Below, piece by piece: positions 657 to 8,581 of a stretch of DNA of 8,581 nt. The DNA comes from a virus (Duplodnaviria > Heunggongvirae > Uroviricota > Caudoviricetes): IMG/VR virus record IMGVR_UViG_2740892423_000012; one strand, written 5' to 3'. The stretch's first letter is position 1; each line of letters begins with the position of its first letter. The translations under genes were made by a program, and so were the position numbers. Under the pieces are notes generated by a model, which was not told the origin of the DNA, ran no database searches, and worked only from the letters and a program-made list of their open reading frames with translations.

Positions 657-762
657 AGGGCATGCCAAGCAAGTCGATGCTGCATATGCAAAAGAATGCG
701 CGCTGGAAGGTATGGCGAAAACACAGGTTATGTGGCTGAAAGAGGGGATTATTAAGGCGTGA
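634..762 (+). pseudogene. ybcO: C-terminal fragment of a YbcO-like (DUF1364 putative nuclease) gene; 5' part missing
   Basis: Frame-1 translation [42 protein letters not shown] ends with TGA 760-762 overlapping the rusA GTG start (GTGA). In-frame stops lie at 625-627 and 631-633 with no start codon after them. The C-terminus resembles DLP12 YbcO from memory. Confidence 0.5.
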
Positions 763-1121
763 ATACCTACAGCATCACATTACCCTGGCCTCCGAGCAAT
801 AATCGCTATTACCGCCATAATCGCGGGCGCACGCACGTCAGCGCAGAGGGGCAGGCATACCGCGATAACGTCGCCAGAATCATTAAAAACGCAATGCTGG
901 ATATCGGCCTGGCTATCCCTGTGAAAATCCGCATTGAGTGCCACATGCCGGATCGCCGTCGCCGTGACCTGGATAATCTGCAAAAAGCCGCTTTTGACGC
1001 ACTCACTAAAGCAGGTTTCTGGCTGGATGATGCTCAGGTCGTTGATTACCGCGTTGTGAAGATGCCTGTTACCAAAGGTGGGAGGCTGGAACTGACCATC
1101 ACCGAAATGGGGAATAAATGA
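759..1121 (+). CDS. rusA: Holliday junction resolvase RusA (crossover junction endodeoxyribonuclease), GTG start
   Basis: 120-aa translation [38 protein letters not shown]... is recognisably RusA of DLP12-type prophages. Stop TGA 1119-1121. Confidence 0.92.
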
Positions 1122-1258: not shown

Positions 1259-1343
1259 AGTCAGAGATAACAATCAACTAATACTGTTTTGTTGATTTTT
1301 GCTTGTAATTGGCGTTCTGGTCTGATTTTTGTGGAGTAAGTTG

Positions 1344-1727
1344 ATGCGTGATATTCAGATGGTTCTTGAGCGTTGGGGAGCGTGGGCGGCTAATAATCAT
1401 GAAGATGTGACCTGGTCGTCCATTGCCGCCGGTTTTAAGGGATTAATTACTTCAAAAGTAAAATCTCGCCCGCAATGTTGTGACGATGACGCGATGATTA
1501 TTTGCGGGTGCATGGCCCGTCTGAAAAAGAACAACAGCGATTTGCACGATTTATTAGTAGATTATTATGTAGTCGGTATGACATTCATGTCACTGGCAGG
1601 TAAGCATTGCTGCTCTGATGGTTATATCGGGAAAAGGTTACAGAAGGCTGAGGGCATAATTGAAGGGATGTTAATGGCATTAGATATCCGGTTAGAGATG
1701 GATATCGTTGTTAATAACTCTAATTAA
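1344..1727 (+). CDS. quuD: late-gene antiterminator Q (phage 82 / QuuD type), 127 aa
   Basis: ATG 1344 preceded by GGAG at 1333-1336. Translation [26 protein letters not shown]...DIVVNNSN*. The track's TTG start at 1329 is an upstream extension. Confidence 0.9.
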
Positions 1728-1916: not shown

Positions 1917-3014
1917 TTAGAACTGGTAAACCAGACCTACAGCAACGATGTCATCAGTGCTTACACCGAGTGCTTTAGTGAAGTCATTTTTGTCAAGCAG
2001 GTTGATTTTGTAATCAACGAAAGTAGACATATTTTTGTTGAAGTAATAGGTTGCACCTACATCAACATATTTGACTAAGTCCTGATCGCCCCATACTCCA
2101 AGATCCTTACCTTTAGATTGCAGGTAAGCAACGGACGGACGCAGACCGAAATCGAACTGATATTGTGCAACAGCTTCGAAGTTTTGGGCTTTATTAGCAA
2201 CGAAGTGATCAGCAAATACAGTCATATTCTGGGTTTCAGAATAGGTAGTGGCCAGGTAAATGTTGTTAGCGTCATATTTCAGACCTGCGGCCCAAACTTC
2301 TGCATTTTTACCGGAAGCAAATACTTCAGGAAGAACTTTCCCTGCATTAACTTGAGTGTCGGTACGATCAGATTTCGCATAAGTTGCACCGATACCGAAT
2401 CCTTCGTATTCATAGGTAGCAGAGAAACCGAAGCCATCACCGTTACCTTCAGTGTAGTTATCGAAATCGCTACGATCGTTTTTGCCTTGGTACTGAGCAG
2501 CAAAGTTCAGACCATCAACCAGACCAAAGAAGTCGTTGTTACGATAGGTTGCAACACCAGTTGCACGTTGAGTCATGAACACGTCGGTTTGAGTCCAAGT
2601 GTCACCACCGAATTCTGGCAGGACGTCAGTCCACGCACCGATGTCGTATGCTACACCGTAGTTACGGCCGTAATCGATGGAGCCGTAGTCACCGAATTTC
2701 AGGCCAGCGAAGGCAAGACGGGTTTTATCTTTGGAGGAACCTTGAGATTCAGCGCGGTTGCCTTTGAATTCATATTCCCACTGACCGAAACCAGTCAGTT
2801 GATCGTTGATTTGGGTTTCACCTTTGAAGCCAAGACGGGCATAAGTAGTATCACCATCATCTGCATCATTAGAGGAGAAGTAGTGCTTAGCATTAACTTT
2901 CCCGTACAGATCCAGCTTGTTACTGTCTTTATTATAAATTTCAGCTGCCTGAGCAGACATCGCCATCAGTACTGATGCAGCTACAGCAGAAATTGCCACT
3001 GTTAATTTTTTCAT
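1917..3014 (-). CDS. nmpC: outer-membrane general porin, OmpC/OmpF family (NmpC/Lc-like), 365 aa with signal peptide; intact
   Basis: ATG at 3012-3014 (complement) gives [23 protein letters not shown]|AEIYNK... (cleavable signal peptide) and ends ...VGLVYQF* with the C-terminal Phe typical of beta-barrel porins. The ORF track's 385-aa version begins at an upstream in-frame ATG. No interrupting insertion is present. Confidence 0.9.
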
Positions 3015-3441
3015 CGTGAGCCCTTTTTTTGAACTATTATTAAAAAATGATGTCACTGCGCGATAAATATTCATCTAATCAATGTGATTATTTCAAGATG
3101 TAAGTTTTGGTTTCTCGTTTGATTTGTGAAGTAGATCTCTATTTTTATCTGAACTTTTTTCTATCGAATCCTATTCATGGCTCTTGGCTGAATAAAAATA
3201 AATCTATTAGCCAATTTATATTAACGGCTGTTATTTATAAGTGCTCTATAATTTGAAGGTTCAATTTAAATTGGCTAAAAATAACGCTGGAAATTATTTG
3301 TTGGTTATTTGTTGAGATTTGCTTATGTATTTGTAGTGGTGTTTTCAATACTCGGTAGCATTCTCGCAAATATCATTTAGTGGTTTACGTACGTAAAAAA
3401 TTGGTTATGCTGTTAAGAGTGGTTACTTCGTCACACAGCTT

Positions 3442-3586: not shown

Positions 3587-3802
3587 ATGAAATCCATGGA
3601 TAAGTTAACAACGGGTGTCGCCTATGGCACCTCAGCAGGTAGTGCCGGGTACTGGTTTTTACAGCTGCTCGATAAAGTCACGCCCTCACAGTGGGCAGCA
3701 ATAGGTGTGCTGGGTAGCCTGGTATTTGGCCTGCTGACGTACCTGACAAACCTTTATTTCAAGATTAAAGAAGATAAGCGCAAGGCTGCGAGAGGTGAAT
3801 AA
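3587..3802 (+). CDS. essD: class II holin of the phage 21 S (pinholin) type with dual-start motif; 71 aa from ATG 3587, 68 aa from ATG 3596
   Basis: Translation [71 protein letters not shown] has two hydrophobic segments and a charged C-terminus. SD GAGGT at 3576-3580. The Met-Lys-Ser-Met start is the classical antiholin/holin pair. Confidence 0.9.
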
Positions 3803-4299
3803 TGCCTCCATCATTACGAAAAGCTGTTGCTGCTGCTATTGGTGGCGGGGCTATTGCTATAGCATCTGTGTTAATCACTGGCCCAAGTGGTAACGATGGT
3901 CTGGAAGGTGTGAGACATAATCCTTACAAAGACATAGTTGGTGTATGGACTGTATGTTACGGGCATACAGGAAAAGACATCATTCCCGGTAAAACGTATA
4001 CCGAAGCAGAGTGCAAAGCCCTCCTGAATAAAGACCTTGCCACTGTCGCCAGACAAATTAACCGGTACATCAAAGTCGATATACCGGAAACAACGCGCGG
4101 CGCTCTTTACTCGTTCGTCTACAACGTGGGTGCTGGCAATTTCAGAACATCGACGCTTCTTCGCAAAATAAACCAGGGTGATATTAAAGGCGCATGTGAT
4201 CAGCTACGGCGCTGGACATACGCTGGCGGTAATCAATGGAAAGGACTGATGACTCGCCGTGAGATTGAGCGTGAAGTCTGTTTGTGGGGGAAACAATGA
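3802..4299 (+). CDS. rrrD: SAR endolysin (T4 E-like lysozyme with N-terminal signal-anchor-release domain), 165 aa
   Basis: ATG overlaps the holin stop (TAATG). The N-terminal Gly/Ala-rich hydrophobic stretch [20 protein letters not shown] is followed by E-x8-D-x5-T catalytic spacing ([16 protein letters not shown]). Ends ...CLWGKQ*. Confidence 0.9.
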
Positions 4300-4754
4300 G
4301 CAGAGTAACCGCGATTATCTCCGCTCTGGTTATCTGCATCATCGTCTGCCTGTCATTGGCTGTTAATCATTACCGTGATAACGCAATCGCCTACAAAGAG
4401 CAGCGCGATAACAAGGCCAGTGAACTGGAGAAGGCGAACGCCACCATCGCTGACATGCGGAAGCGTCAACGTGATGTAGCAGAACTCGACGCAAGATACA
4501 CAAAGGAGCTTGCTGATGCTAACGCGACTATCGAAAGTCTCCGTGCTGATGTTTCTGCTGGGCGTAAGCGCCTGCAAGTCGCCGCCACCTGTGCAAAGTC
4601 AACGACCGGAGCCAGCGGCATGGGCGATGGAGAAAGCCCAGGACTTACAGCAGATGCTGAACTCAATTATTACCGTCTCCGAAGTGGAATCGACAAGATA
4701 ACCGCGCAGGTTAACTACCTGCAGGAATACATCAGGACGCAATGTCTGAAATAA
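4296..4754 (+). CDS. rzpD: Rz i-spanin (inner-membrane spanin subunit), 152 aa
   Basis: ATG 4296 overlaps the endolysin stop (ATGA). N-terminal [21 protein letters not shown] followed by a charged helical periplasmic domain. The track's start at 4284 is an upstream extension. Confidence 0.85.
4516..4701 (+). CDS. rzoD: Rz1 o-spanin (outer-membrane lipoprotein), embedded in the +1 frame of Rz, 61 aa
   Basis: AAGGAG at 4503-4508 sits 7 nt before ATG 4516. Translation [20 protein letters not shown]|[16 protein letters not shown]... has a lipobox Cys and a Pro-rich mature region. It lies wholly inside Rz. Confidence 0.8.
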
Positions 4755-4785
4755 TTTTTTTGCAAATCACAAAGTCCATTTAATG

Positions 4786-4810
4786 AGCCTCGCGATGCGG
4801 GGCTTTTTTG
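4786..4810 (+). terminator. rho-independent terminator after the lysis cassette
   Basis: Stem AGCCTCGC/GCGGGGCT (one G-U wobble) with loop GAT, followed by TTTTTT. Confidence 0.7.
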
Positions 4811-4816
4811 CAATAA

Positions 4817-4843
4817 ATGCGTACCGCAACGCATGTTTTTTTT
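4817..4843 (+). terminator. second tandem terminator
   Basis: Stem ATGCGT/ACGCAT with loop ACCGCA, followed by G and an 8-nt T-run. Confidence 0.55.
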
Positions 4844-4958
4844 ACACCGAACCTGCCCCTTTGGAATGGGCCTTTGAGGATACCAGTTAGTGCTGGCGAG
4901 CCTCGGTGGGCTGGTTTCCTGTGCGGCAAAGGTTCATTTCAAATGGTAGGTAAACGTT

Positions 4959-5480
4959 ATGAATATCGTGCCACTTAATTACAAAGGTGAAATTGTCAGT
5001 TTCAACACTGATGGTTGGATCAACGTCACAGGTGTTGCTGAGAGATTTGGGAAACGCATTGATAACTGGATGCGTTTGGCAGAAACGCTTGAATACGTTC
5101 GTGCTTTAGACGAAGCGTTGACCGGGAAAGAATCTCAAATTTTACATCCCTCACAATCGAGGTATGTAAAAACCAGCAAGGCACGAAAGGACAGGGGTGG
5201 TGGTACGTGGCTACATCCAAAACTTTCAGTTGCATTTGCCCGTTGGTGTGATGCTCGTTTTGCTGTGTGGTGCGATCTGCACATTGATAGTCTGCTTCGC
5301 GGTGAACTGACTGAGCAGCAGAAATATGAGCAAGCATGTCGCATTCGCGATGACCGGAAATCAAAAGCCAGCAATGGGGCAAGAGAGATGGCTCGCTGGC
5401 GATGGGATAAGCCGGTTATTGAAGCAAATGTTGAGTACTGGCGCGAGCAACTGCAGTTGACTCTCGATATCGCGTGCTGA
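4959..5480 (+). CDS. KilA-N domain protein, 173 aa
   Basis: ATG 4959 with a weak SD (AGGT, 7-nt spacing). The segment GGTWLHPKLSVAFARWCDARFAVWCDLHIDSLL matches the conserved core of the KilA-N DNA-binding domain as remembered. The C-terminal third is charged and helical. Confidence 0.7.
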   Translation: MNIVPLNYKGEIVSFNTDGWINVTGVAERFGKRIDNWMRLAETLEYVRALDEALTGKESQILHPSQSRYVKTSKARKDRGGGTWLHPKLSVAFARWCDARFAVWCDLHIDSLLRGELTEQQKYEQACRIRDDRKSKASNGAREMARWRWDKPVIEANVEYWREQLQLTLDIAC

Positions 5481-5697
5481 TGGCAAACGCAAAACTGCGT
5501 TATCGAAAAAATCAAAGCATTACTAGAACTGAGCAACGGCTATCCATTACAAAGCCCATCTACGGGTGGGCTTGATAATGGCTTATACCCTGCACGGGAT
5601 AACTTAACTGATATCCCTTTTAACGGATAAAGGCATTCAAGCCTGACACATCATGCGCTGTATCGTCGCCGTATTCCCGCATTAACCATGACCGTAG

Positions 5698-5949
5698 CCC
5701 GACGGGGAATTCCTTCTGCGTGAGTGTGCGGGAATAATCAAAAACGATGCACACCGAGTTTTTACCGCGTTTATGGTTCGCGGGTTTGTCTCTCATGCTC
5801 CCCGTTCTGCTGCTTGGTTCTTCACGTTACGTGGTTGTCTCCTTTACCCGGAAGATCTGGAGCGCGTCACGCAGATTATTAATGGTGGGAAAAACGGCAT
5901 TAAAGACCGCCGTGAACGTTACGTCAAAGCTAAAGTCGCATTGGTGTGA
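5698..5949 (+). pseudogene. C-terminal remnant of a GH19 (chitinase-like) endolysin
   Basis: Frame-1 translation ...SHAPRSAAWFFTLRGCLLYPEDLERVTQIINGGKNGIKDRRERYVKAKVALV* carries the family-19 IINGG..G motif and a degenerate AWF motif. In-frame stops lie immediately upstream (5689-5697) and no N-terminal catalytic half exists in any frame between 5481 and 5697. Confidence 0.4.
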
Positions 5950-5968
5950 GGTCTATGTGGGAATTGAA

Positions 5969-6247
5969 ATGATTGTCGGCCTGATTGCTGCCTTGCTGGC
6001 AGTAATAGCCGGTGCTTTTGGTCTGGGTAAATCTCGCGGTGCAAGTATCGCTGAGACAAAAGCGAACCAGCAACGCACTAAAGAACGTGCAACTGCTACT
6101 GAAGTCGTTGCAATACGCCGGGTAGAAACAACAAAAGGAGCCTGGGATGTACAGCAGATTGTTAATCATCTTCCTGATGGCGATGTTGACCGTGAGTTGC
6201 GCGAAAGATTTACCCGAAAAAACTGCAGTAACAGACACGGCTTGTGA
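5969..6247 (+). CDS. i-spanin-like protein (N-terminal TMD plus charged helical domain), 92 aa
   Basis: ATG 5969 lies 20 nt after the endolysin-remnant stop. Translation MIVGLIAALLAVIAGAFGLGKSRGASIAETKANQQRTKERATATEVVAIRR.... The 166-aa track ORF from 5747 is an upstream extension through the endolysin remnant in another frame. Confidence 0.5.
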   Translation: MIVGLIAALLAVIAGAFGLGKSRGASIAETKANQQRTKERATATEVVAIRRVETTKGAWDVQQIVNHLPDGDVDRELRERFTRKNCSNRHGL

Positions 6248-6362
6248 CTGGGTGAACATCATCTACCTCACTGAGCACGATATTACCGTGCAGGATAAGC
6301 AGACGAAGCGGGACATATTGGCGCATAACAAATCAGTGCAGGCTAACTGTAGAATGTATTGA
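6147..6362 (+). CDS. o-spanin-like outer-membrane lipoprotein, overlapping the 3' end of the previous gene in the +1 frame and extending beyond it, 71 aa
   Basis: Strong SD AAGGAG at 6135-6140, 6 nt before the ATG. Signal peptide with lipobox MYSRLLIIFLMAMLTVSC; the mature part contains two further Cys residues. The overlapped (P2 LysB/LysC-like) architecture is typical of spanins. Confidence 0.55.
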   Translation: MYSRLLIIFLMAMLTVSCAKDLPEKTAVTDTACDWVNIIYLTEHDITVQDKQTKRDILAHNKSVQANCRMY

Positions 6363-6515
6363 AACTAATACTTTTGTAAGCGAATGTGTGTAAGTGCGAC
6401 ATGGTTGTGTGTTTTATCTAAGAATTGTTTTGCCGTAAAAGAGCATTTTGTGGTTGTAAAAAATGTGGGGAACTCGCTATAGTTCAGCCATAGAAAGCAG
6501 CTTTTCATTTTTTTT

Positions 6516-6536
6516 AAGCCTCATTTGAGGCTTTTT
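6516..6536 (+). terminator. putative rho-independent terminator
   Basis: Stem AAGCCTC/GAGGCTT with loop ATTT, followed by a T-run, and preceded by a T-run. Confidence 0.45.
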
Positions 6537-6561
6537 GCACATTTAGAAATTGAGTAAATGG

Positions 6562-6599
6562 CACATATAGTGTTTTCAGTGTTAAAAAAACACTATATG
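6562..6599. promoter_or_regulatory. perfect 14-bp inverted repeat (operator-like) with overlapping -10-like hexamer
   Basis: ACATATAGTGTTTT (6562-6575), 10-bp spacer, AAAACACTATATGT (6586-6599). TATAGT at 6566-6571 lies inside the left arm. The repeat sits 26 nt upstream of the 66-aa ORF start. Confidence 0.45.
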
Positions 6600-6624
6600 T
6601 AGCACTACAATAGGAGATTCCACT

Positions 6625-6825
6625 ATGAGCCCGGCTGAGTTCTACGATTTCTATGGCATTAAACCTGCAGAGATGATGACTGGAGAAACTGTTAACAACT
6701 TTGCTTCCAGGGTACTTGCTCAACAAACGAGTACGAGTGGTAGTACCGGCGTTTGGTACTCTCAAGGTACTGCAGCGCAGGCTAAGCAAAATCAAAGTAC
6801 ACATCATCAACTTTACACCTACTAA
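6625..6825 (+). CDS. small hypothetical protein (66 aa), first gene of a two-gene operon
   Basis: Good SD AGGAG at 6611-6615, 9 nt before ATG 6625. Translation MSPAEFYDFYGIKPAEMMTGETVNNFASRVLAQQTSTSGSTGVWYSQGTAAQAKQNQSTHHQLYTY. The stop is 5 nt before the next ATG. No family recognised. Confidence 0.55.
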   Translation: MSPAEFYDFYGIKPAEMMTGETVNNFASRVLAQQTSTSGSTGVWYSQGTAAQAKQNQSTHHQLYTY

Positions 6826-6830
6826 ACACC

Positions 6831-7733
6831 ATGCCTAATTGGAGTGACGTACTGGGCGAGATGACGGCTCTCGCCCAGAAGAGTCCGATGGATGAGGTTC
6901 GCCGTAAATATTTATTACAACTGTCTAATCACACTGGAAGAAATGTAATTACATATTATTCCGGATGGTTGCAACATGGTGGTGCAGAAGTCCGACATCT
7001 CACCCTGATGACAGATGATGATAAAAATGGATTAATGACTGTTATTAATGGTTTAGATGTTACAAAGGGGGTGGATTTAATATTACATACCCCTGGAGGT
7101 GATATCGCTGCCTTAGAGTCTATTGGTCATTATCTGCGTTCTAAGTTTGGGACTGATATCAGAGCTATCGTTCCTATGATTTCAATGTCATGTGGTACCA
7201 TGCTTGCGTGCTGTGCTAATGAAATCATAATGGGTAAACAGTCCAATATTGGCCCGATTGACCCTCAGTTTAATGGATTTTCTACACATGCTATTATTGA
7301 GGAATGGAATAGAGCTCAGGCGGAAATTTTTAACAATCCAGCAGCTGTGCAAATGTGGCAGTTTATACTTCAGAAACTCAACCCCACTATTATCGGAGAG
7401 TGTGAAAAAGCTATCCAATGGGCGAATGAGATTGTCAAGCACTGGCTTATGACGGGTATGTTTGCAAATGATCCGGAGTCAGAAACAAAAGCAACTCATG
7501 TATGCTCAGAGCTGAACAATCATCATACAACTTACACTCATTCGAGACATATCCATTTCGATAAAGCTCAGAAAATTGGATTGAATGTTACAGAACTGGA
7601 AAGTGATCAAGTCCTCCAGGATTTGGTTTTGACCATACATCACAGTTACATGCACTCGTTTGGTGGAGCCCCGATCGCAAAGATCATAGAAAACCATAAT
7701 GGGAATGCTATGATTTGGAATATGCAATCGTAA
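6831..7733 (+). CDS. ClpP/SppA-fold serine peptidase (S49 / SDH 'serine dehydrogenase proteinase'-like), 300 aa
   Basis: LILHTPGGD motif (compare ClpP/SppA ...SPGG) followed by ISMSCGTMLA with a candidate nucleophile Ser. The gene is visibly AT-rich relative to its neighbours. There is no SD before ATG 6831 (suggesting coupling to the upstream ORF); alternative in-frame starts exist at 6861 and 6888. Confidence 0.75.
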   Translation: MPNWSDVLGEMTALAQKSPMDEVRRKYLLQLSNHTGRNVITYYSGWLQHGGAEVRHLTLMTDDDKNGLMTVINGLDVTKGVDLILHTPGGDIAALESIGHYLRSKFGTDIRAIVPMISMSCGTMLACCANEIIMGKQSNIGPIDPQFNGFSTHAIIEEWNRAQAEIFNNPAAVQMWQFILQKLNPTIIGECEKAIQWANEIVKHWLMTGMFANDPESETKATHVCSELNNHHTTYTHSRHIHFDKAQKIGLNVTELESDQVLQDLVLTIHHSYMHSFGGAPIAKIIENHNGNAMIWNMQS

Positions 7734-7755
7734 GAACCTATTTACACACCATATT

Positions 7756-7781
7756 AGCCTCGCAGTAGCGGGGCTTTTTTA
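7756..7781 (+). terminator. rho-independent terminator; near-duplicate of the 4786-4810 terminator
   Basis: Stem AGCCTCGC/GCGGGGCT with loop AGTA, followed by TTTTTT. The stem arms are identical to the terminator after Rz. Confidence 0.7.
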
Positions 7782-7904
7782 TGCGCATCGCACGCGCACA
7801 TCAAAGAGAGTCTTTCAGTAATGATTCTGGATATCATAGCTATAAATACAATTGATAGTTATTTTCATTTTGGCGGGTCCTTTCCGGCGATCCGACAGGC
7901 TACG

Positions 7905-8093
7905 GGGCGGAAGGCGCGCGGGTTTTCGCTATTTATGACAATTTTCCGGTTTAAGGCGTTTCCGTTCTTCTTCGCCGTAACCTAATGTTTTTATTTAAAA
8001 CACCCTATGAAAAGAAAGGAAACGACAGGTGCTGAAAACGAGCTTTTTGGCCTCTGTCGTTTCCTTTCTCTGTTTTTGTCCGTGGAATGAACA
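7905..8093 (+). other. cos packaging site: cosN-equivalent 12-mer (7905-7916) plus cosB (terminase small-subunit and IHF binding region)
   Basis: 7917..8093 (CGCGGGTTTTCGCTATTTATGA...GTCCGTGGAATGAACA) closely matches the lambda left-end cosB sequence as I remember it, and ...CGATCCGACAGGCTACG upstream matches the lambda right end. The 12-mer between them is GGGCGGAAGGCG. Confidence 0.65.
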
Positions 8094-8581
8094 ATGGAAG
8101 TCAACAAAAAGCAGCTGGCTGACATTTTCGGTGCGAGTATCCGTACCATTCAGAACTGGCAGGAACAGGGAATGCCCGTTCTGCGAGGCGGTGGCAAGGG
8201 TAATGAGGTGCTTTATGACTCTGCCGCCGTCATAAAATGGTATGCCGAAAGGGATGCTGAAATTGAGAACGAAAAGCTGCGCCGGGAGGTTGAAGAACTG
8301 CGGCAGGCCAGCGAGGCAGATCTCCAGCCAGGGACTATTGAGTACGAACGCCATCGACTTACGCGTGCGCAGGCCGACGCACAGGAACTGAAGAATGCCA
8401 GAGACTCCGCTGAAGTGGTGGAAACCGCATTCTGTACTTTCGTGTTGTCGCGGATCGCAGGTGAAATTGCCAGTATTCTCGACGGGCTCCCCCTGTCGGT
8501 GCAGCGGCGTTTTCCGGAACTGGAAAACCGACATGTTGATTTCCTGAAACGGGATATCATCAAAGCCATGAACAAAGCAGC
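8094..8581 (+). CDS. nu1: terminase small subunit Nu1 (lambda type), 5' partial: 162 codons, runs off the window
   Basis: Translation MEVNKKQLADIFGASIRTIQNWQEQGMPVLRGGGKGNEVLYDSAAVIKWYAERDAEIENEKLRREVEEL... is recognisably lambda Nu1 with its N-terminal winged-helix DNA-binding domain. It is absent from the ORF track only because no stop occurs within the window. Confidence 0.9.
   Translation, partial: MEVNKKQLADIFGASIRTIQNWQEQGMPVLRGGGKGNEVLYDSAAVIKWYAERDAEIENEKLRREVEELRQASEADLQPGTIEYERHRLTRAQADAQELKNARDSAEVVETAFCTFVLSRIAGEIASILDGLPLSVQRRFPELENRHVDFLKRDIIKAMNKA

Follow-up and report, generated by a model that had tools for sequence, protein, structure and literature searches.

A remnant of a GH19-type lysis module with a putative spanin pair behind the complete lysis cassette of an Escherichia coli lambdoid prophage

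The late region of an Escherichia coli lambdoid prophage, available as IMG/VR virus record IMGVR_UViG_2740892423_000012, raises the question of what the reading frames that follow an already complete lysis cassette represent, and whether any of them still serves in lysis. Within the window (the whole stretch of DNA analysed, 8,581 nucleotides), Pfam searches agreed with the initial annotation of an intact phage 21-type cassette with an embedded Rz1 (S21 holin, phage lysozyme, Rz and Rz1). The remnant of a second lysis module that had been placed 3' of this cassette was likewise recovered with PHROGs, blastn and tblastn, albeit within corrected limits (5794-6362). All of the elements described are encoded on the plus strand (Table 1), and their PHROG, Pfam and blast matches are far beyond chance. 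Taken as a whole, this DNA is very probably best explained as a scar composed of three parts of one colinear piece (5794-5949, 5957-6247 and 6147-6362). Comparison with intact relatives showed this piece to correspond to the distal end of a module with the order holin, holin, GH19 endolysin, i-spanin and o-spanin, the two-holin order having been read in two GH19 modules only (those of E. coli DA33137 and phage mEp390).

Table 1. Features of the two lysis regions and of their flanking DNA in the window
Feature	Coordinates	Strand	Evidence
Holin, phage 21 S type	3587..3802	+	Pfam Phage_holin_2_1, E=2e-35
Endolysin, T4-lysozyme/GH24 type, hydrophobic N-terminus	3802..4299	+	Pfam Phage_lysozyme, E=2.3e-48
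Rz i-spanin	4284..4754	+	Pfam Phage_lysis, E=2.1e-39
Rz1 o-spanin, fully embedded in Rz	4510..4701	+	Pfam Rz1, E=2.4e-20; coordinates within 4284-4754
Conserved lambdoid segment	5541-5813 (left-parent DNA 5541..5793)	.	megablast
Left recombination junction, CATGC common to both parental sequence types	5794..5798	.	Alignment with intact-GH19 DA33137, mEp460 and 2B8
GH19 endolysin 3' remnant, codons 154-204 of 204 plus stop; pseudogene	5794..5949	+	tblastn; phrog_181; RefSeq
i-spanin-like gene	5957..6247 (GTG 5957, 96 aa; alternative ATG 5969, 92 aa)	+	phrog_1026; homology to mEp390 gp51
o-spanin-like lipoprotein gene	6147..6362 (71 aa, ATG 6147)	+	phrog_1275 'Rz-like spanin', E=1.5e-27
Right end of intact-module homology	6349..6350	.	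blastn to L003 and L004 stops at 6349
66-aa hypothetical gene and SDH-family Clp-fold serine protease gene	6625..7733	+	Pfam SDH_protease, E=3.7e-22; phrog_25714
Intrinsic-terminator hairpin closing the block	7756..7780	+	Terminator scan

The first part of the piece is a stub of 51 codons and a stop codon from a SPN1S-type GH19 endolysin. When an intact 204-aa GH19 endolysin from an E. coli prophage was utilized as a tblastn query, residues 154-204 aligned to 5794-5946 with 82% identity, and a match to the PHROG endolysin family phrog_181 (E=3.3e-13) was confined to residues 33-82 of the 83-aa open frame. RefSeq labels the identical stretch as a pseudogene, 'glycoside hydrolase family 19 protein, incomplete, missing N-terminus'. 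Among solved structures, the intact parent-type endolysin, which also matched Pfam Glyco_hydro_19, came closest to PDB 4OK7 (E=3e-79 over residues 2-203), which we take to be the GH19 endolysin of Salmonella phage SPN1S; relative to 4OK7, the stub encodes the last 51 residues only. The proposal of a C-terminal GH19 fragment was thus upheld by the PHROG and tblastn matches and by this structural relative, but not the length of 84 aa assigned to it, as the true remnant comprises 51 aa and 5698-5793 is unrelated lambdoid DNA in the same frame. No homologue of endolysin residues 1-153 was found by blastn, tblastn or alignment, and to the left of 5794 only lambdoid non-GH19 DNA and a KilA-N gene were present, in agreement with the earlier statement that neither a holin nor the N-terminal part of the endolysin of the second module is retained. 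The stub has neither a start codon of its own nor a full-length frame, and is open from 5698 solely through the unrelated DNA. Because it lacks a start and the N-terminal three quarters, and hence the catalytic region, the endolysin stub is presumably dead; in GH19 enzymes the catalytic glutamates are located in the N-terminal third.

The '84-aa' frame begins inside a conserved lambdoid segment that gave megablast matches in 3,956 of 5,426 complete E. coli genomes and is also found near the right ends of phages ev099, 2B8 and mEp460, its usual place being between the lysis genes and cos. The alignment across the junction followed the lambdoid sequence as far as CATGC and the GH19 sequence beyond it, revealing a 5-bp microhomology inside the endolysin gene, although its position is certain only to a few bases, the closest intact module being 88.5% identical. 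Homology to intact modules covered exactly 5794-6349 (88.5% by blastn), ending directly past the codon for the final conserved Cys of the o-spanin, and tails beyond that Cys vary naturally. The junction alignment, together with an Rz/Rz1 pair to which the second-module spanin pair bore no detectable similarity upon direct comparison, supports the suggested recombination between lambdoid phages with non-homologous lysis modules. The left end of the remnant is joined at the microhomology to conserved lambdoid DNA trailing a complete phage 21-type cassette, and the join itself would have been formed by illegitimate recombination between two such phages. An ORF of 166 aa (5747-6247) begins in the lambdoid segment and continues in the i-spanin frame, with no ribosome-binding site seen ahead of it.

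The endolysin stop codon is separated from the start of the i-spanin-like gene by 7 nt, equal to the gap in the intact module of DA33137, and the spacing expected between an endolysin and a spanin gene was thereby confirmed. The encoded protein matched phrog_1026 ('Rz-like spanin') with E=4e-26. It had been described as a 92-aa ORF with an N-terminal transmembrane domain; the membrane segment (residues 5-23) was recovered, whilst the start was not, since translation most likely begins at GTG 5957 to give 96 aa. This codon is preceded by a Shine-Dalgarno sequence (GAGG, 5948-5951) 5 nt upstream, and corresponds to ATG in the two annotated intact copies (DA33137 and mEp390). An upstream in-frame ATG (INGG codons), which would confer a positive N-terminus, was ruled out as the start, as it is absent from the intact DA33137 module. 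The hydrophobic stretch at residues 5-23 has a Kyte-Doolittle mean of 2.6 and is matched by an AlphaFold helix at 3-20, and a single N-terminal transmembrane segment is kept across 22 aligned homologues. Further helices were modelled at 31-69 and 75-87, with a mean pLDDT of only 57, too low for a fold search. The protein is short, with approximately 70 residues past the membrane segment. Its N-terminus carries no positive charge (being negative or neutral) and K/R residues follow right after the membrane segment; an N-in/C-out topology is therefore assumed, the charge rule giving no support.

The o-spanin-like gene starts within the i-spanin gene and ends past it, in the +1 frame ((6147-5969) mod 3 = 1) and with an overlap of 101 nt, such that the overlapped i-spanin/o-spanin architecture had been recognised correctly. 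It is preceded by the Shine-Dalgarno sequence AAGGAG at 6135-6140, and the lipoprotein signal reads MYSRLLIIFLMAMLTVS followed by CAK, with the lipobox Cys codon at 6198-6200. Each of the 61 distinct homologues listed had the signal peptide, the lipobox Cys and two further Cys residues, many of them with a canonical lipobox (IASC or LASC); the two Cys of the mature protein lie at positions 33 and 68. In two-component spanins, homotypic disulfide links require one or more cysteines in the periplasm (PMC6139136). The mature lipoprotein is predicted to be sorted to the outer membrane, because residue +2 is Ala and not Asp, the latter being an inner-membrane retention signal.

A small lipoprotein with a good Shine-Dalgarno sequence, encoded in the moron-rich region from the lysis genes to cos, which is the location of bor in lambda and the EC14 copy, could also be a Bor/Cor-like lipoprotein for lysogenic conversion or exclusion with an unrelated membrane protein beside it, an alternative that had been put forward previously. 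However, no Pfam family, Bor included, was matched by 6147-6359 at E<=1, and no PADLOC model matched either. Moreover, in 80 of 80 intact relatives the gene follows the endolysin and overlaps the same membrane-protein gene, and no sigma-70-like promoter, which would permit expression from a repressed prophage, was found within 4700-6362. We consider a Bor/Cor-like identity highly improbable.

The evidence instead supports the downstream ORFs as the putative cognate, overlapped spanin-type pair of the GH19 module. For the three ORFs (stub, i-spanin and o-spanin) no Pfam or NCBIfam family scored above threshold, and RefSeq names both spanin-like genes 'hypothetical proteins', so they were assigned from PHROG matches, from synteny and from their homology to curated phage pairs. 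The matches to phrog_1026 and phrog_1275, and homology to the mEp390 pair, agree with the spanin identity initially given to the 92-aa and 71-aa ORFs, and comparison with prophages carrying the intact module placed the pair directly 3' of a full-length 204-aa GH19 endolysin in 80 related loci (tblastn). For instance, E. coli DA33137 (NZ_CP029579.1, locus L003) shares 88.5% nucleotide identity with the window over 5794-6349, along with the 7-nt gap. Modules of the DA33137 type differ in encoding the full 204-aa GH19 endolysin after two holins, identified by Pfam as Phage_holin_8 and Phage_holin_3_7, and on their 3' side carry an HNH endonuclease and a P27-family terminase, whereas the window carries the SDH protease, a lambda-type cos and Nu1. 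In another instance, locus L089, the spanin-type pair sits after a GH108 endolysin.

The cassette of phages mEp390 and HK639 comprises holin, holin, GH19 endolysin and the gp51/gp52 'Rz-like spanin' pair (the RefSeq name for mEp390). The window resembles mEp390 in gene order and in the overlapped +1 architecture, with identities of 65% for the i-spanin (gp51) and 62% for the o-spanin, and its stub is homologous to the C-terminus of gp50. It differs from mEp390 in the absence of both holin genes and of endolysin residues 1-153, in the GTG start and 7-residue C-terminal extension of the i-spanin, and in the o-spanin tail past the last Cys, which is RMY in the window and a charged tail of approximately 8 residues in mEp390. 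The pairs of mEp390 and HK639 were included by Kongari et al. (2018) among curated two-component spanins, the i-spanins forming a family (HK639, mEp390) and the o-spanins being assigned to that of BcepNazgul (PMC6139136). The spanins of SPN1S and epsilon15 belong to a different family (Bcep176), given under 'Embedded' in the table of identical families (PMC6139136).

A literature search retrieved no experimental report for this mEp390-type spanin family. To our knowledge none of its members has been tested experimentally, the name being derived from position, architecture and curation, and it could be argued that the pair is not a spanin pair but another accessory of the GH19 module, such as a membrane-anchored regulator with a cytoplasmic C-terminal domain accompanied by a lipoprotein. 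The very short soluble domain would suit such a role, as would the lack of a Pfam or NCBIfam family and the RefSeq naming, and the negative or neutral N-terminus with K/R past the membrane segment would, under the positive-inside rule, favour a C-in orientation. This charge argument is weak given the charge distribution of lambda Rz, in which the membrane segment is followed by more positive charge than precedes it. Furthermore, the definition of a two-component spanin is matched by the location directly behind the endolysin, by the overlap in the +1 frame, by the lipobox and by the pair of conserved Cys residues in the periplasm, and no other spanin candidate was seen in those intact modules whose genes were read. 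The occurrence of the pair behind a GH108 endolysin in L089 is also as expected for a self-contained lysis function, and a non-spanin accessory is hence considered improbable.

As a spanin pair, the second-module proteins would be presumed to have the same job as Rz-Rz1 of lambda and phage 21, to which they are alike in pairing an inner-membrane protein with an outer-membrane lipoprotein, the overlapping frames of the two closing the cassette. Rz1 is, however, embedded, whilst the second-module pair is overlapped; the i-spanin of the latter has 89-96 aa in comparison with 156 aa in the Rz-Rz1 type, and its o-spanin, unlike Rz1, has two conserved Cys residues in the periplasm and is not rich in proline.

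The truncated form constitutes one near-identical lineage, found in seven of the 5,426 complete E. coli genomes and in three IMG/VR contigs. Among the loci fetched, the 154-204 stub was confined to six near-identical copies, namely the window, L001, L002 and L009-L011. All copies of the remnant are at least 99% identical and differ at 5 of 569 positions, too few for a selection test within the lineage. A search of GTDB genomes for related loci returned two Citrobacter loci only, none of the 80 IMG/VR loci exceeded 83% in the i-spanin besides the remnant's own lineage, and a search of 5.8 billion proteins yielded nothing closer than 82%; the parent phage thus remains unsampled.

Within the lineage the right flank is constant, whilst the left flank is one of three different complete lysis cassettes (essD-rrrD-Rz-bor, class II holin-YdfR-rrrQ-Rz-KilA-N, or the S21-type-KilA-N cassette of the window), and the divergence between the window and EC14 ends approximately 35 bp to the left of the junction. 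These cassettes have since come to precede the remnant through homologous exchange within the conserved DNA to its left. The remnant was shown to travel with the DNA on its right, comprising the 66-aa gene, the SDH protease gene, cos and Nu1; the first two of these genes accompany it in the four other copies compared (L001, L002, L009 and L011). PADLOC gave no match to the spanins, to the 66-aa protein or to the SDH protease. The hairpin that closes this block is a near-twin of the post-Rz hairpin at 4786-4809 (folds of -15.6 and -14.1 kcal/mol), and a short conserved segment at the block-closing hairpin is common to many intact-module loci. In the LZSFT34 prophage, the same left and right flanks enclose DUF1398 and YlcI genes, and a deeper remnant of the same module type, consisting of 50 bp of the o-spanin gene, was observed in many other E. 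coli prophages, including those of the ST131 type.

Since the same strand carries cos and Nu1 further downstream, the genes were placed in the late operon. The spanin genes would be carried on the Q-antiterminated late transcript and, given this transcript and their good ribosome-binding sites, are probably produced late in infection. Both keep a start codon, a Shine-Dalgarno sequence, the transmembrane segment or lipobox and the conserved cysteines, and neither a frameshift nor a premature stop was present in any of six copies. If expressed, the pair would form a second inner-to-outer-membrane bridge, redundant with Rz/Rz1, and the chances that it is still competent in lysis appear about even.

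It is also quite possible, in our view at somewhat below an even chance, that the pair is a neutral, decaying relic without activity and that 5794-6362 is junk in which disabling mutations have yet to accrue. The first cassette already provides Rz/Rz1, and the identity of at least 99% between the copies points to a young event, after which intact ORFs would survive by default. ST131-type prophages hold the module trimmed to 50 bp with no apparent harm. The i-spanin, moreover, has a GTG start where DA33137 and mEp390 have ATG, and differed from the family consensus by 12 non-synonymous and 7 synonymous codon changes, in comparison with 164 and 392 pooled across the others (Fisher p=0.004), among them E49I at a position that is invariant across the other 78 loci compared. 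It has also lost its usual stop, the ancestral position (6224-6226) reading TGC and adding seven C-terminal residues. The same extended 96-aa form is nonetheless carried by L089, an intact cassette with a GH108 endolysin, which ruled out the loss of the stop codon as a marker of decay. The excess of amino-acid change, assessed by pairwise dN/dS and by counts against the consensus, was not taken as proof of decay either, since one intact-module i-spanin copy showed a similar non-synonymous ratio and the GH19 stub showed no excess (p=0.47), indicating a test of little power. In addition to the absence of frameshifts and premature stops in the six copies, the non-overlapped part of the o-spanin gene, with 3 non-synonymous and 3 synonymous codon changes, lies within the range of intact-module copies, which also counts against a decaying relic.

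No evidence for an independent role of the spanin pair was seen. That the orphan pair, or the o-spanin lipoprotein alone, has been kept by selection, as a second and mechanistically different outer-membrane disruptor that would render lysis more robust in different hosts or conditions, or in another envelope role, seems unlikely, though it would be compatible with a remnant that outlasted at least two exchanges of the upstream cassette and in which the o-spanin is well conserved whilst the i-spanin has drifted.

The remnant is routine, and a partial GH19 pseudogene is already marked by RefSeq in the identical sequence. In the Hendrix/Juhala model, gene fragments at the module boundaries of lambdoid phages arise when illegitimate recombination is succeeded by homologous exchange. 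The gene fragments of this model are alike in having an in-gene junction at very short microhomology, with conserved flanks where later homologous exchange shuffles modules. On the basis of sequence comparison, the second-module remnant is a putative recombination scar and a product of everyday phage mosaicism, adding one more example, nothing different in kind, to the gene fragments at lambdoid module boundaries.

The significance of the locus is modest: it provides a textbook example with a dated and bounded in-gene junction at 5 bp of microhomology, in which the scar now stands behind three different lysis cassettes through homologous exchange in adjoining conserved DNA. For annotation, the two RefSeq 'hypothetical proteins' past the GH19 pseudogene can be named as an i-spanin and o-spanin of the mEp390/HK639 type, and orphan spanin pairs are to be expected in surveys that count lysis genes. 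If the pair works, this phage would be a natural example of the coexistence of two spanin systems that are not homologous, and would offer a compact i-spanin (89-96 aa) for mechanistic study.

The window comprises the late region of an E. coli lambdoid prophage, the features of which are listed below, apart from those of the remnant itself. IMG/VR contig L010, which carries another copy of the remnant, was identical to the window over 4700-5800 and 6340-8507 in blastn searches, and at each position compared over 5700-6699. A gene annotated as a porin also lies directly upstream of the essD holin gene in the LZSFT34 prophage, and the KilA-N protein had a weak PADLOC match to a candidate defence family, PDC-S22 (E=1.2e-5).

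Features of the window surrounding the lysis-module remnant
Feature	Coordinates	Strand	Remarks
RusA	759-1121		
Q-type antiterminator	1329-1727		
Porin gene	1917-3074	minus	385 aa; between Q and holin genes
S21 holin, first cassette	3587-3802		Pfam Phage_holin_2_1, E=2e-35
Phage lysozyme, first cassette	3802-4299		Pfam E=2.3e-48
Rz, first cassette	4284-4754		Pfam E=2.1e-39
Rz1, first cassette	4510-4701		Embedded entirely within Rz; Pfam E=2.4e-20
KilA-N gene	4959-5480		Between the two lysis blocks
66-aa gene	6625-6825		phrog_25714
SDH-family Clp-fold serine protease gene	6831-7733		300 aa
Terminator hairpin	7756-7780		
Lambda-like cos region	near 7900		
Nu1/nohD terminase gene	start at 8094		

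The remnant of a second lysis module downstream of the complete phage-21-type cassette is real, and the initial annotation had interpreted it correctly. The open frame 5698-5949, ending in SAAWFFTLRGCLLYPEDLERVTQIINGGKNGIKDRRERYVKAKVALV before its stop codon, had been described as an 84-aa C-terminal fragment of a GH19 endolysin. PHROG endolysin family 181 matched this 83-aa frame with E=3.3e-13 over residues 33-82 only, and window 5794-5946 aligned to residues 154-204 of the 204-aa endolysin in the intact module of E. coli DA33137, which itself matched 4OK7 (E=3e-79) and Pfam Glyco_hydro_19. The GH19 assignment was thus upheld but the length was not, as the GH19 part amounts to 51 codons and the first 32 codons of the frame are unrelated DNA. 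A conserved lambdoid segment occupies 5541-~5813; 3,956 of the 5,426 complete E. coli genomes searched contained it, as did phages ev099, 2B8 and mEp460, close to their right ends. In a six-way alignment the window followed lambdoid sequence up to GTCTCTCATGC and then GH19 sequence starting CATGC, which places the junction at a 5-bp microhomology (5794-5798). DNA homology to the intact module covered 5794-6349, with 88.5% identity. In strains EC14 and 2017-02-2CC, RefSeq annotates the identical sequence as 'glycoside hydrolase family 19 protein; incomplete; missing N-terminus', with limits that agree with the 51 codons, and then two hypothetical proteins (96 and 59 aa).

The proposed overlapped pair of i-spanin-like and o-spanin-like genes was likewise confirmed to follow the stub. 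The i-spanin-like gene starts with GTG at 5957, preceded by a GAGG (5948-5951) that overlaps the endolysin stop (5947-5949), whereas the two annotated intact copies, of phage mEp390 and DA33137, have ATG at this start and a protein beginning MGLE. Its product, of 96 aa from GTG 5957 or 92 aa from ATG 5969, is hydrophobic at residues 5-23 and otherwise charged, and matched phrog_1026 'Rz-like spanin' (E=4e-26). The usual stop, TGA, is replaced by TGC at 6224-6226, adding seven residues, and a low-confidence AlphaFold model (pLDDT 57) has a membrane helix and two more helices. The o-spanin-like gene (ATG 6147 to 6362; AAGGAG at 6135-6140) lies in the +1 frame with a 101-nt overlap, and its product begins MYSRLLIIFLMAMLTVS followed by CAK, giving a lipobox Cys with Ala at +2, and matched phrog_1275 'Rz-like spanin' (E=1.5e-27). 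Homology to intact modules stops at 6349, directly past the last conserved Cys codon; since anything from 1 to 14 residues follows this Cys in the homologues listed, the RMY tail encoded in the window is unremarkable. No similarity was detectable between these two proteins and Rz/Rz1 of the first cassette, and a Pfam search of both matched no family, Bor included. A 166-aa ORF (5747-6247) also runs from an ATG in the lambdoid segment, at about the start position of mEp460 gp59, out of frame through the GH19 stub and into the i-spanin frame. It is conceivable that this ORF fuses a hydrophobic N-terminus to the i-spanin; no ribosome-binding site was seen before 5747.

With the i-spanin as bait, IMG/VR yielded 80 loci and GTDB genomes two, besides the annotated loci of E. 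coli and phages. The gene directly 5' of the spanin pair encoded a full-length GH19 endolysin in 80 loci, with one further locus ending at a contig edge, and the stub of residues 154-204 occurred only in six near-identical copies (the window, L001, L002 and L009-L011). Among the 5,426 complete E. coli genomes, seven carried the remnant, at 99.0-99.7% identity. The order in the two annotated GH19 modules read was holin, holin, GH19 endolysin and spanin pair, the DA33137 holins being Phage_holin_8 and Phage_holin_3_7 by Pfam and the mEp390 pair being annotated 'Rz-like spanin'. The i-spanins of phages HK639 and mEp390 are listed as one family, and their o-spanins have been assigned to the BcepNazgul family (Kongari et al. 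2018, PMC6139136). In Logan contig SRR33388672_96 (L089, 1163-2769), a GH108 endolysin with a PG_binding_3 domain stands in place of the GH19 enzyme, flanked as before by holins of these two families and by this spanin pair, indicating that endolysins are exchanged within this cassette type and that, within lysis cassettes, the spanin pair behaves as an autonomous unit.

In favour of retained function, no remnant copy contained a frameshift or premature stop, the ribosome-binding sites, membrane segment, lipobox and two periplasmic Cys are all in place, and the non-overlapped part of the o-spanin gene has an ordinary pattern of change (3 non-synonymous and 3 synonymous codons). Against it, the i-spanin gene departs from the family consensus at 12 codons non-synonymously and at 7 synonymously, compared with a pooled 164:392 in the other distinct i-spanin sequences (Fisher p=0.004), and has E49I at a site invariant in the 78 other loci compared as well as the lost TGA stop; no relative closer than 82% was found among 5.8 billion proteins. 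These signs of decay are tempered in that the dead GH19 stub has no non-synonymous excess (p=0.47), one intact-module i-spanin copy has a ratio similar to that of the window, and the i-spanin of the intact L089 cassette has the same extended 96-aa form. The chances that the putative spanin genes are still functional appear roughly even.

The remnant genes share the strand of Q, cos, Nu1 and the lysis genes, and are therefore placed in the late operon. Between Rz and the remnant there are terminator-like hairpins at 4786-4809 and 4817-4834. In lambdoid phages, polymerase modified by Q transcribes through such sites. No sigma-70-like promoter was found in 4700-6362. The genes should therefore be expressed late in the lytic cycle but not in the lysogen. 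The hairpin at 4786-4809 (-14.1 kcal/mol) and that following the SDH protease gene (-15.6 kcal/mol) are near-identical, each consisting of AGCCUCGC, a loop and GCGGGGCU, then a U run. Around the latter, a 40-75-bp segment is 81-97% conserved 3' of the spanin pair in numerous intact-module loci that have otherwise diverged, and may serve both as a common element closing the block and as a site of homologous exchange.

Copies of the remnant were variable at only 5 of 569 positions and have a common right flank of 66-aa gene, SDH protease gene, cos and Nu1, the first two accompanying the remnant in all four other copies compared. PADLOC gave no match to either protein, and an 81%-identical version is found behind a different lysis cassette in strain 492 (L093). 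The left flanks differ, comprising the S21-type cassette and KilA-N in the window, essD-rrrD-Rz and bor in EC14, and a class II holin, YdfR, rrrQ, Rz and KilA-N plus an additional gene in 2017-02-2CC. The window and EC14 have 15 differences in 5701-5757, and this divergence ends ~35 bp before the junction, indicating that later homologous exchanges in the lambdoid segment swapped the upstream cassette. The LZSFT34 prophage has both flanks of the window with DUF1398 and YlcI genes between them, its homology stopping at 5756 and restarting at 7853. A rare illegitimate join inside the endolysin gene, survivable because a complete lysis cassette remains, would have been followed by homologous exchanges in nearby conserved DNA, the sequence of events reportedly proposed in the Hendrix/Juhala model.

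Many other E. coli prophages, those of the ST131 type among them, have retained nothing but the last ~29 o-spanin codons, as an unannotated piece of 50-53 bp that is 98-100% identical to window 6300-6349 (for instance, 3501-3553 of L092, from ST131 strain 4993). A complete class II holin-YdfR-lysozyme-Rz cassette directly precedes the piece and an HNH/P27-terminase module follows it, and this piece-only type accounted for about two-thirds of the 283 complete genomes matched. Here the same type of module has been truncated independently a second time, and more deeply.

The remnant is an ordinary finding, and RefSeq already marks the sequence as a pseudogene; this analysis adds corrected limits, the junction and a name, orphan spanin pair, for two 'hypothetical' genes. 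The scar is a classic outcome of lambdoid mosaicism.
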